Assembly: GCF_055900595.2 (NCBI RefSeq)
Contig: NZ_CM148325.1
Length of the DNA: 64,000 nt
Reading direction: 5' to 3' (one strand)
The translations under genes and the position numbers were made by a program. Shown piece by piece: positions 58,716 through 64,000 of the stretch. The notes beneath the pieces were generated by a model. That model ran no database searches, had not been told where the DNA came from, and saw nothing but the letters and a program-made list of their open reading frames with translations. The number at the start of each line of letters is the position of its first letter. Positions within the stretch are counted from its first letter, which is position 1.

Positions 58716-59159
<444 letters not shown>

Positions 59160-59183
59160 TTATCAAAATCATTAAGTTAAGGT

Positions 59184-59244
59184 AGATACACATCTTGTCA
59201 TATGATCAAATGGTTTCGCCAAAAATCAATAATCAGACAACAAA

Positions 59245-59252
<8 letters not shown>
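59184..59252 (-). ncRNA. IS10 RNA-OUT antisense RNA (position inferred from canonical IS10 layout)
   Basis: Canonical IS10 places pOUT transcription from about nt 115 outward to about nt 47; mapped onto this copy by offset from the outside end. Confidence 0.5.
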
Positions 59253-61028
<1,776 letters not shown>

Positions 61029-61222
61029 TTATCGTTATGATCTACAAAGGCCACCAGCATAACAAATCCGTGGTCGGTGGCAAAAAAAGCAGATTTCGCT
61101 TATTAAAACTGCATATTGATTGAAGTTTGAATAAACGCGCGATTTTTTTAAAAAGTTTGTTGACCTCAGGTCATGATTTCCCTAAATTAGCGCCCGTTCC
61201 AGCAAGACAGGAACGACAATTT

Positions 61223-61310
61223 GGTGAGGTGTCCGAGTGGCTGAAGGAGCACGCCTGGAAAGTGTGTATACGGCAACGTATCGGGGGTTCGAATCCCCCC
61301 CTCACCGCCA
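61223..61310 (+). tRNA. serX: tRNA-Ser (anticodon GGA)
   Basis: GGTGAGGTGTCCGAGTGGCTGAAGGAGCACGCCTGGAAAGTGTGTATACGGCAACGTATCGGGGGTTCGAATCCCCCCCTCACCGCCA: class II tRNA with long variable arm and encoded CCA; hairpin plus T-run terminator follows. Confidence 0.9.
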
Positions 61311-61413
61311 TCTTTAAAGAAGAGCTCGTACGAAGGTACGGGCTTTTTTTTCGTATATTGCACACACCGGGGGATGAAAAGCCCCGACCGGGGTTCGACA
61401 ACTGGCGACAAAC

Positions 61414-62781
61414 TCAATCATCATCCTTGCAGTTGATAAGAATTTCTGCCTCTTTTACAACTATCTTATTACGTCCGGTTTCTTTCGCTTCATATAGTGC
61501 ATTATCAGCCATTCGATAGATTTCATTCGGATTTAACGCACTTCCCTGAGTCACCACAGCGCCAATGCTAATCGTCACTTTTTGCGGTATGGCGTATTCA
61601 GGATTATCGCCTGTCAAACGCTCTACATTTGCCCTTATCCTTTCGGCTAAAACTTTCGCGCTTTCAGTATCGGTCTCCGTCAGCAAGACGCCAAACTCTT
61701 CGCCGCCAACGCGTGCTAAAAGGTCATTTGGTCGTATGCTTTTCCCAATGATGCTCACCACTGTTTTTATCACCTGATCGCCAACCGGATGCCCCCACGT
61801 ATCGTTAACTTTTTTAAAGTGATCGATATCCATAATCATGACACAATAAGACGTTTTTTGGGCTGATGCTGATTGAGCCTTCAGTTCATTGAAAAAATAA
61901 TTCCTGTTAAATATATTAGTTAATGGATCGCGATGGGCAATGTTCTTTGTTACTCGTAGCGCACTGAAAATATGGCACATAAATATTACCATAACGGTTA
62001 ATTTACTGACTACTTCAATAGTGCGGCTAATATACCAAGTGGACACACTATACCTGCTCATAAATAACAGAGAGATATTATACAGCACGGCACAGAAAGC
62101 AATCACTGATACTCCATTCCAGATATCACAGCGTAAACCATTAAAGTATAGATTAACCAAAAGCAAGATTAACCACATGAAAATCATTATGGTAACATAT
62201 GAGGTTTTCCAGACTACCTGACCATTTTCATTTGTTAACTCGGCAATATGTAAACTGTAGTCATCATAATGACTACTTAGCATGTGAGCAACTGCCGCCC
62301 CCCCAAAAATAAAAAATAGGCTTATACACAATGTCATTTTTTTGGAAAAAAAACAGCGTTTCTTATTGTTTTCACTAACTTTATTCACCAGCGCTAGCAA
62401 TATTAACATGCACAAACTCATCTGACGAAACAAATAATAAATTGCAATATCATTTTGTACAACGCTGCTTATCAAATGCCCCTCAATAAATTGCTGAATG
62501 ATAATGGCAGTTTTAACAAAGTAAATCAAACAACTCAGAAACGCTAAACTAAGTATACAGTTTGAAAATTGCACACGATCATAAATGAAATACAATTGCA
62601 TGAAAATAAATGCAACGGTATCGATAAAAAATAAAGCAATCATAACCATTAGATAGGTTGATCGTGGAACAACCTCCTCAACGGTTGGCTGATTAAACCA
62701 ACTATTTACCAAAACGAATGCAAGCCCAAACAATAAGCTCACCAATACAGTACTACTAATTCCCAAATAGTCTTTTTCCAT
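61414..62781 (-). CDS. dgcT: membrane-anchored diguanylate cyclase (GGDEF/GGEEF domain)
   Basis: Polytopic N-terminal domain plus C-terminal GGDEF domain with RVGGEEFGVLL active site; start set at MEKDYLGISSTVL (ORF track begins 30 codons upstream). Confidence 0.88.
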   Translation of the reverse strand: MEKDYLGISSTVLVSLLFGLAFVLVNSWFNQPTVEEVVPRSTYLMVMIALFFIDTVAFIFMQLYFIYDRVQFSNCILSLAFLSCLIYFVKTAIIIQQFIEGHLISSVVQNDIAIYYLFRQMSLCMLILLALVNKVSENNKKRCFFSKKMTLCISLFFIFGGAAVAHMLSSHYDDYSLHIAELTNENGQVVWKTSYVTIMIFMWLILLLVNLYFNGLRCDIWNGVSVIAFCAVLYNISLLFMSRYSVSTWYISRTIEVVSKLTVMVIFMCHIFSALRVTKNIAHRDPLTNIFNRNYFFNELKAQSASAQKTSYCVMIMDIDHFKKVNDTWGHPVGDQVIKTVVSIIGKSIRPNDLLARVGGEEFGVLLTETDTESAKVLAERIRANVERLTGDNPEYAIPQKVTISIGAVVTQGSALNPNEIYRMADNALYEAKETGRNKIVVKEAEILINCKDDD

Positions 62782-63136
62782 AAAGCTACACCAATCTGTA
62801 GGTTGTAGATCCCTTTCTGTCACTAATAGATATAAGAACTGTACTGTTGTCAATATAAAAATCCACCACAAACAATACCAATGATGATAGTTGCAGACCG
62901 CAATTATTATTGCCTTAGTGCTTTATACATTCTTCGCGACAAGACAGGCTTGCAAATACATATAAATGGTTATAAGGAAATCCTTATAAAACATTAATTC
63001 ATAGATATATTAGGAATAACAATTGAATCCGTGAGTACAGTAACACTGCATTTCATCAGGACTTTCGAAAAATCCGATATCATGCATCGGAATTTACTGA
63101 TTTAATTATTTTAATCCTAATTTATTTTGAAAAAGG

Positions 63137-63370
63137 CATTGGGATTTATGCCGTATTCCTGAAGTTCCTCATCATTGGAATGGATTTTCGGGCGAGAAAA
63201 GGATTTTATATGGATACTCTACTCATCATTTCTTCTTCTCATCATCAACAATTCACGTCTCTCTTCCGCGTTTAATAACGGATTATGATGTGCAAAAAAA
63301 ATATCTTTCGTTTCAGTTACCTGTAATTAGATACAGAGAGAGATTTCGGCAATACATGGAGTAATACAGG
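63137..63370 (+). promoter_or_regulatory. pgaA 5' leader with CsrA-type GGA motifs; 5' extent approximate
   Basis: GGA motifs flank the start (CATGGAGTAATACAGGATG); leader length of about 234 nt is from established knowledge, not measured here. Confidence 0.45.
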
Positions 63371-64000
63371 ATGTATTCAAGTAGCAGAAAAAGGTGTCCG
63401 AAAACCAAATGGGCTTTGAAAATTCTTACTGCCGCATTTTTAGCAGCGAGTCCCGCGGCGAAGAGTGCTGTTAATAATGCCTATGATGCATTGATTATCG
63501 AAGCTCGCAAGGGAAATACTCAGCCAGCTTTGTTATGGTTTGCACAAAAATCAGCACTCAGTAATAACCAAATTGCTGACTGGTTACAGATTGCCTTATG
63601 GGCCGGGCAAGATAAACAGGTTATTACCGTTTACAACCGCTACCGTCATCAGCAATTACCAGCGCGTGGTTATGCAGCTGTCGCCGTCGCTTATCGTAAC
63701 CTGCAACAATGGCAAAACTCGCTTACACTGTGGCAAAAGGCACTCTCTCTGGAGTCGCAAAATAAGGATTATCAACGGGGACAAATTTTAACCCTGGCAG
63801 ATGCGGGTCACTATGATTCTGCGCTGGTTAAACTTAAGCAGCTTAACTCTGGAGCACCGGACAAAGCTAATTTACTCGCAGAAGCCTATATCTATAAACT
63901 GGCGGGGCGGCATGAGGATGAATTACGGGCGATGACAGGGTCATTACCTGAAAATGCCTTAACGCAACAATATCCCACAGAATACGTGCAGGCATTACGG
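63371..64000 (+). CDS. pgaA: poly-beta-1,6-N-acetylglucosamine export porin PgaA, N-terminal 210 codons (continues past window end)
   Basis: Not in ORF track as a start-to-stop ORF. Reads MYSSSRKRCPKTKWALKILTAAFLAASPAAKSAVNNAYDALIIEARKGNTQPALLWF... (signal peptide plus TPR region). Confidence 0.88.
   Translation, partial: MYSSSRKRCPKTKWALKILTAAFLAASPAAKSAVNNAYDALIIEARKGNTQPALLWFAQKSALSNNQIADWLQIALWAGQDKQVITVYNRYRHQQLPARGYAAVAVAYRNLQQWQNSLTLWQKALSLESQNKDYQRGQILTLADAGHYDSALVKLKQLNSGAPDKANLLAEAYIYKLAGRHEDELRAMTGSLPENALTQQYPTEYVQALR

Follow-up and report, generated by a model that had tools for sequence, protein, structure and literature searches.

The spacer between dgcT and pgaA at positions 62782-63370 of the window, which is the whole 64,000-nucleotide stretch analysed (RefSeq assembly GCF_055900595.2, contig NZ_CM148325.1), is very probably the native Escherichia coli pgaABCD control region, comprising an NhaR promoter and a CsrA/Rho-controlled 5′ untranslated region (UTR), in an intact minority allele. 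We infer that the mechanism described for K-12 would carry over to the window allele, given ∼96% identity and the retention of every known element. The region is already known, and there is nothing new in the window copy.

The spacer (GC 0.34) is limited by the dgcT start codon, which reads CAT on the + strand at 62779-62781, and by the pgaA ATG at 63371-63373. This divergent intergenic region was delimited from open reading frames and alignment to K-12; its length, first given as 590 bp, is 589 bp when counted between the start codons at 62781 and 63371. The dgcT (ycdT) coding sequence (61414-62781, − strand, 455 aa) was identified from the ORF list, Pfam and identity to K-12. Its product carries a MASE4 domain (PF17158, 1e-64) and a GGDEF domain (PF00990, 3e-50), has an intact active site (GGEEF, within RVGGEEFGVLL) and is 90% identical to K-12 DgcT; the gene is annotated dgcT in related genomes. 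The pgaA coding sequence (63371-64000, + strand) leaves the window at 64000 after its first 210 codons (630 nt). The encoded 210-aa N-terminus is 96% identical to K-12 PgaA, and its top matches are NCBIfam PgaA models, with a score under the full-length cut-off because the window holds the first 210 aa only. The divergent pairing of a c-di-GMP synthase gene with the pga operon, claimed in the preliminary description, is thus confirmed by the domains of DgcT and by both K-12 identities.

Gene order towards the end of the window runs from yceJ through mdoGH, csg, ycdXYZ, ghrA, serX and dgcT to pgaA, and the order serX-dgcT-pgaA is common to E. coli genomes. The neighbouring ghrA is split by an IS10-type element. 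Following a scan of 60500-64000, no Rfam 15 model matched the spacer or leader; the lone match in the spacer, to a miRNA model at E=0.6, was discarded as spurious, the real neighbour being tRNA-Ser(GGA) at 61223-61310. A plasmid search for the pga leader returned mostly chromosome-sized or mislabelled records and gave no sign of a mobile leader.

Matches to the spacer were obtained in 4,235 of 5,426 complete E. coli genomes, with at least 80% coverage in 4,125. Identity was 93.4% to the ycdT/dgcT-pgaA region of K-12 MG1655 and 99.8% to strain Z0117EC0005; the value for a canine isolate was 99.8%. In the nearest genome, pgaABC is intact. The promoter and leader together (301 bp) are 96.7% identical to K-12, and the same 301 bp recur at at least 99% identity in 188 complete genomes. 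Judged by these matches, the window copy is an intact, minority and well-populated allele of the E. coli pga control region.

A divergent dgcT-pga allele (L003-type), present in ∼99 E. coli genomes and encoding a PgaA N-terminus of 86% identity, was obtained from a genome-contig scan with the PgaA N-terminus. Two loci were returned; the second lies in a Tannerella assembly, on a contaminant contig that is E. coli-like. A protein homologue search with the same N-terminus yielded mostly frameshifted E. coli fragments, Klebsiella alone being truly divergent.

Identity was compared by stretch, in numbering that sets the first leader nucleotide (63134) as +1. For K-12 and the divergent allele respectively, it was 90.3% and 61% in the dgcT-proximal spacer, 94.6% and 83% in the promoter block, and 96.2% and 72% overall in the leader. 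Within the leader, identity to the divergent allele was ∼80% at +39 to +143, 43-57% at +144 to +218 and 100% over the Shine-Dalgarno/AUG block; further upstream, the block from −96 to −7 was 77-87% conserved. Identity to K-12 is complete (100%) from −55 to +31. Such a pattern of conservation would be expected if an activator site lay close to the promoter and if the 5′ half of the leader and the translation-initiation region were both functional.

The pgaA 5′ untranslated leader (63134-63370, + strand, 237 nt) was placed by alignment to the published K-12 5′UTR of 234 nt (PMC4052769, PMC3571907). It is orthologous to the K-12 leader, with 228 of 237 positions identical and a single 3-nt indel, and the proposal that this long leader is a known CsrA target was correct (PMC4052769, PMC7652899). 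The three extra nucleotides are A's, an A8 tract at 63294-63301 replacing the A5 tract of K-12. Besides this AAA insertion, six point substitutions were found, at +32, +82, +88, +156 and K-12 positions +174 and +211. Two of them, C82U and G88A, lie at the apex of the hairpin described below and turn a predicted C-G pair into U-A. The change from C to U just 3′ of the site-2 GGA is the sole change in any of CsrA sites 1, 2, 5 and 6, site 2 reading GGAU here and GGAC in K-12. The SELEX consensus for CsrA is reportedly RUACARGGAUGU (Dubey 2005); GGAU is nearer to it than the GGAC of K-12.

Leader and AUG together contain eight GGA triplets, at 63142 (+9), 63177 (+44), 63182 (+49), 63201 (+68), 63212 (+79), 63280 (+147), 63358 (+225) and 63369 (+236). 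When compared with the characterised K-12 leader, as the preliminary description had proposed, the window leader was not divergent (∼96% identity): all eight K-12 triplets are kept in place, and none of the nine leader differences hits a GGA core. The excess of GGA is modest, with eight observed against 4.9 ± 1.5 in dinucleotide-preserving shuffles (P=0.037); at the density of the whole window, 10.5 GGA per kb, ∼2.5 would be expected in the leader, and the antisense strand of the leader had no GGA excess (3 observed, 2.8 expected). Because the count is weakly above chance, the case for CsrA rests on homology and not on motif counting. The GGA motifs initially noted around the pgaA ribosome-binding site are present: CATGGAGTAATACAGGATG is found at 63355-63373 and nowhere else in the window, with two GGA at 63358 and 63369, 11 nt apart. 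That at 63358 lies inside the GGAG Shine-Dalgarno sequence, and a GGA within a Shine-Dalgarno sequence, taken alone, is unremarkable; that at 63369 overlaps the AUG.

The functional CsrA array reaches ∼170 nt further upstream than the RBS sites, which were the only ones initially noticed. According to PMC4052769 and PMC7652899, which recount the work of Wang 2005, the K-12 pgaA leader carries six footprinted CsrA sites. In the same papers, the Shine-Dalgarno/AUG sites are described as needed for translational repression and the two 5′-most sites, within +61 to +81, as driving CsrA-induced Rho termination. The stretch +61 to +81 forms the left arm of a discontinuous hairpin (+61 to +107), whose right arm is the 5′ half of a C-rich Rho utilisation (rut) site (PMC4052769); opening of this hairpin by CsrA leads to Rho-dependent termination at ∼+138 to +200 (PMC4052769; PMC7652899).

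On the basis of this published anatomy (PMC4052769) and of the predicted fold, the metastable hairpin +61 to +107 was located at 63194-63240 on the + strand. Its left arm (63194-63214, + strand) holds site 1, AAAAGGAUU (GGA at 63201), and site 2, UAUGGAU (GGA at 63212). The GGA cores of sites 1, 2, 5 and 6 are the same as in K-12. A C-rich, G-poor tract, the putative rut region, follows at 63215-63273 (+ strand); of its 59 nt, 20 are C and 3 are G, and it matches K-12 at 97-100% identity. Over 78-nt windows covering +61 to +158, C amounts to 26-27% and G to 9-12%, in agreement with the published C>G bubble at +50 to +130 (PMC4052769).

Sites 5 and 6 (63352-63375, + strand) were assigned from identity to K-12 and their published role. 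Site 5, AUACAUGGAGUA, spans the Shine-Dalgarno GGAG (63358-63361), and site 6, AAUACAGGAUGU, spans the AUG (63371-63373); their block is 100% identical in K-12, UTI89, the 28RC1 allele and the divergent allele. The only GGA from the hairpin to the Shine-Dalgarno region lies in ACGGA (63278-63282, + strand, +145 to +149), which is identical in K-12 and reads GGG in the divergent allele. By elimination, this ACGGA is presumed to be CsrA site 3 of the six reportedly mapped by Wang 2005. By the same reasoning, AGAGAGAGA (63335-63343, + strand, +202 to +210), identical in K-12, is presumed to be a degenerate site 4. PMC4066749 counts AGAGA among secondary CsrA sites and cites Wang 2005 for it, and AG-rich degenerate CsrA sites have been described for pgaA (PMC10729762).

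Two more GGA occur 5′ of published site 1, in UUGGAAUGGAUU (63177-63184, + strand, +44 and +49). The divergent allele has both, one at an offset of 1 nt. It has lost its GGA at published sites 2 and 3 and keeps six of the eight GGA, against 37% expected per motif (P ∼0.04, a weak deviation). The Shine-Dalgarno/AUG sites and the 5′-proximal GGA are conserved more deeply than published sites 2 and 3, which provides a modest lead for specialists. It is possible, if rather unlikely, that the CsrA array of the pgaA leader is larger than the six published sites, with the GGA at +9, +44 and +49 added. If true, these GGA could serve as nucleation points for CsrA on the nascent transcript ahead of hairpin formation, or shield the 5′ end.

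RNA folding was carried out as global minimum free energy and partition function calculations, with local accessibility computed at W80/L40. A 5′-terminal hairpin, GGCAU-UGGGAUUU-AUGCC, is predicted at 63135-63152 (+ strand) with GGGA in its loop, the classic high-affinity presentation for the +9 GGA (P unpaired 0.92 in the global fold). Its predicted stability is −6.7 kcal/mol (z = −2.3), which 4 of 200 shuffles equalled; the divergent allele preserves the GGGA and four of the five pairs, and the GGGA lies outside the six published CsrA sites. Among the leader elements compared with shuffles, only this hairpin was extra stable. The whole leader was no more structured than shuffles (z = +0.5), nor did the +61 to +107 hairpin alone exceed them in stability (z about −0.2 to −0.5), at −6.0 kcal/mol here and −6.4 kcal/mol in K-12. 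Since the published hairpin is deliberately metastable, fold stability was rejected as evidence either way.

Counting GGA motifs in predicted loops, which the preliminary description had put forward as a check, gave a mixed picture. The +9 GGA is in a loop, and the AUG-overlapping GGA (+236) is predicted in the triloop of a UACA/UGUA mini-hairpin; those at +44, +49, +68, +79 and +147 are predicted to be mostly paired. Overall GGA accessibility is average. The K-12 leader shows the same pattern, so the check does not discriminate and is invalid for this leader. GGA outside loops cannot refute control by CsrA, because the location of sites 1 and 2 in a stem is the mechanism itself. The lesson is that 'GGA in predicted loops' is an unsafe filter for CsrA targets, as the best-characterised multi-site target, in which CsrA invades a stem, fails it.

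For the +61 to +107 hairpin, 22 of 25 tested pairs were intact or compensated across E. coli alleles. Covariation in the 5′ hairpin, the +61 to +107 hairpin and the AUG mini-hairpin, assessed in seven alleles with too little variation, amounted to one compensated pair, C-G to U-A in the window, and 147 of 500 shuffles were equal or better. Strain ESDR8 has G88A without C82U; because of this lone G88A and the non-significant covariation, compensation between C82U and G88A is not claimed.

Upstream of the leader, a candidate NhaR-type activator site region was delineated at 63065-63095 (+ strand) from a consensus match, a dyad and conservation. The sequence TCGAAAAATCCGA (63065-63077, −69 to −57), of the form T-N11-A, matches the NhaR consensus proposed in PMC6307784, TCgaAAAAatCtA, at 10 of 13 positions and overlaps the dyad AAAATCCGAT-N7-ATCGGAATTT. 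NhaR binds upstream of the single pga promoter and activates it (PMC7652899). From its position relative to the presumed +1, TATTTT (63123-63128, + strand, −11 to −6) is the probable −10 hexamer. There is no good −35 upstream of it, and a simple sigma-70 consensus scan did not call a pgaA promoter; the poor −35 and this negative scan are consistent with an activator-dependent promoter. A perfect 9+9 palindrome at 62970-62989, TTATAAGGA-AA-TCCTTATAA, was not taken as a site, because K-12 has it only in imperfect form and the divergent allele lacks it.

On the other side of the spacer, the short dgcT leader contains one GGA, in AAAGGGAUCU (62810-62813, − strand), ∼30 nt 5′ of the AUG and kept in both K-12 and the divergent allele. 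CsrA acts directly on the ycdT mRNA through a single site (PMC4066749, PMC6028588), and AAAGGGAUCU is presumed to be that site. A candidate dgcT −35, TTGACA (62847-62852, − strand), lies in the block TATATTGACAA, which is conserved in the divergent allele and may, with low confidence, mark the −35. An overlapping alternative dgcT promoter from the consensus scan reads TTGGTA-18-TATATT. CsrA represses the pgaABCD mRNA, NhaR translation and diguanylate cyclases, and c-di-GMP allosterically activates PgaCD (PMC7652899).

Three other readings of the region were weighed. According to the first, the RBS-proximal GGA would be a Shine-Dalgarno sequence with a chance neighbour, and the leader would have no CsrA-specific role in this strain. 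The GGAG of any good Shine-Dalgarno sequence contains GGA, and the modest excess (8 vs 4.9) and average accessibility of the motifs speak for it. However, the Shine-Dalgarno/AUG sites are 100% identical to K-12 sites that were footprinted and mutated, their block is invariant in an allele otherwise 72% identical, and AAUACAGGAUGU is one base short of the SELEX sequence RUACARGGAUGU reportedly given by Dubey 2005. Chance is a highly improbable explanation in view of these identities. Equally improbable is a leader that works mainly through translation of a 21-codon upstream ORF (63210-63275) instead of through CsrA and Rho acting on RNA structure. AUG, stop and 21-codon length of this ORF are kept in the divergent allele (MDTLLIISSSHHQQFTSLFRV here, MNTQLTISSSHYQQFASLFLV there), but its peptide has changed at 6 of 21 residues (dN/dS roughly 0.5), its nucleotides are also under constraint as rut site and hairpin arm, and no Shine-Dalgarno sequence is evident. 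Moreover, the AUG was mutated in K-12 by Figueroa-Bossi et al. and pgaA expression was unaffected (PMC4052769).

The region might also be a decaying remnant, with the pga locus being inactivated and the leader free of selection. The insertion in ghrA and the 90% identity of DgcT to K-12 would fit such decay, and the rest of the operon lies beyond the window. Against this, the dgcT and pgaA frames are open and GGEEF is intact, the leader allele is found at at least 99% identity in 188 complete genomes, pgaABC is intact in the nearest genome, and the substitutions spare all known functional motifs, which leaves decay with next to no probability. The reading as an intact, CsrA/Rho- and NhaR-controlled pga region is retained.

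In short, control of the window allele would proceed as follows. Transcription would start at ∼63134 from a weak promoter, activated by the LysR-type NhaR via the conserved block at ∼−70 to −40. The 237-nt leader would fold co-transcriptionally into the metastable hairpin at 63194-63240, with two CsrA sites in the left arm and the first half of the C-rich rut hidden by the right arm. When free CsrA is abundant, a dimer would bind the left arm, open the hairpin and expose the rut, and Rho would terminate transcription within the leader. CsrA bound at the Shine-Dalgarno/AUG would block the 30S subunit and destabilise the mRNA, and the two intermediate sites probably aid cooperative bridging. Titration of CsrA by the CsrB, CsrC and McaS RNAs would relieve repression. 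The diguanylate cyclase DgcT, whose own mRNA would be a single-site CsrA target, would supply c-di-GMP for allosteric activation of PgaCD. As the dgcT mRNA is also a CsrA target and c-di-GMP activates PgaCD, CsrA would control both the machinery and its activator.

The closest known system is the K-12 pgaABCD region (Wang 2005; Goller 2006; Figueroa-Bossi 2014), which has the same locus, flanking genes and orientation and a 96% identical leader. Both have the eight GGA, the hairpin at +61 to +107, a C-rich rut tract, the Shine-Dalgarno/AUG sites and a putative NhaR-type block. The window differs from K-12 in leader length (237 vs 234 nt), in the six point substitutions of the leader, in an A-to-T change at −56 that makes its upstream dyad more symmetrical, in the dgcT-proximal half of the spacer, which is 10% diverged, and in lacking ycdU, IS3 and RtT repeats beyond dgcT. 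Several A(N)GGA sites, including one over the Shine-Dalgarno sequence, are also present in the leaders of glgC, cstA, nhaR and dgcZ/ydeH; there, as in pgaA, the ribosome is kept off by a CsrA dimer that spans sites separated by 10-63 nt (PMC4052769, PMC4066749). Among these multi-site leaders the pgaA array, with six sites, is the largest, and in the literature surveyed hairpin remodelling by CsrA leading to Rho termination is described for pgaA only. Klebsiella pneumoniae pgaA, like that of E. coli, is preceded by a long non-coding region (633 bp), which has four GGA in its last 150 nt, a count not above chance (4 vs 2.8, P=0.28). However, this region has no alignable similarity to the E. coli leader and is not flanked upstream by a GGDEF gene. 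Within the data reached, this type of pgaA leader appears to be restricted to Escherichia.

The minority allele, with GGAU in site 2, a U-A pair at the hairpin apex and an A8 tract, might have a CsrA/Rho threshold unlike that of K-12. The value of the finding is one of annotation only, namely that this genome has an intact, canonically wired pga control region. From such wiring it follows that, as in K-12, CsrA, CsrB/CsrC/McaS, NhaR (pH, Na+) and c-di-GMP should influence the formation of PGA-dependent biofilm.

The ghrA gene, uninterrupted in related genomes, is split in the window by a 1,329-bp insertion sequence of the IS10/ISVsa5 type (59138-60466), whose transposase ORF lies at 59245-60453. 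Both typical termini were found (CTGATGAATCCCC... and ...GGGGATCTCTCAG), and the element is flanked by a 9-bp target-site duplication, CGCCAGGCC, at 59129-59137 and 60467-60475. Further along the window, only ~100 bp (61311-61413) separates tRNA-Ser(GGA) from the dgcT stop codon, whereas in K-12 this interval (~3.5 kb) holds four RtT-like repeats, ycdU, a pseudogene fragment and IS3. The same compact layout as in the window was found in strains Z0117EC0005 and 201609.

A deeply divergent dgcT-pgaABCD allele is present in ~99 complete E. coli genomes (comparison loci L003, 1920-2530; L006, 4633-12611; and L009). Identity to this allele is 86% at the PgaA N-terminus and falls as low as ~61% in the dgcT-pgaA spacer. 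In strain CUPS03, the divergent allele adjoins a tyrosine integrase and an RtT repeat. The spacer of the window contains a perfect 9+9 palindrome, TTATAAGGA-AA-TCCTTATAA, at 62970-62989 (−164 to −145 from the pgaA start site). As the K-12 copy is imperfect and the divergent allele lacks it, this palindrome is probably fortuitous.

In strain ESDR8 (L010, 1-667), a divergently oriented EAL-domain gene, not dgcT, lies ~310 bp from the pgaA promoter and leader, and the chromosomal coordinate of the pga operon is unusual, which suggests a rearranged locus or a second copy. In an assembly of Tannerella forsythia ATCC 43037, one 382-bp contig (NZ_JUET01000049.1; L004) shows essentially no difference from the pgaA promoter and leader of E. 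coli K-12, and almost certainly represents E. coli contamination.

The pgaA leader of the window includes a 21-codon upstream ORF (63210-63275; MDTLLIISSSHHQQFTSLFRV). Its start, stop and length are all retained in the divergent allele, with 6 of the 21 residues changed; in K-12, mutation of its AUG had no effect (Figueroa-Bossi et al., PMC4052769). In strain PT62, which was isolated from a pigeon, a 21-nt stretch of the divergent-allele leader (CCCGTAGTCCTTCCCTTTTGG; L009, ~760-800) is perfectly duplicated in tandem between the 5′ hairpin and the GGA pair at +44/+49.

In the divergent-allele leader, GGA is lacking at published CsrA site 2 (GAA) and at presumed site 3 (GGG; window 63278-63282), and the regulatory hairpin (window 63194-63240) has lost three basal pairs. 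The CsrA sites at the Shine-Dalgarno sequence and AUG (window 63352-63375) are 100% kept. CsrA/Rho attenuation may be different in the divergent allele.
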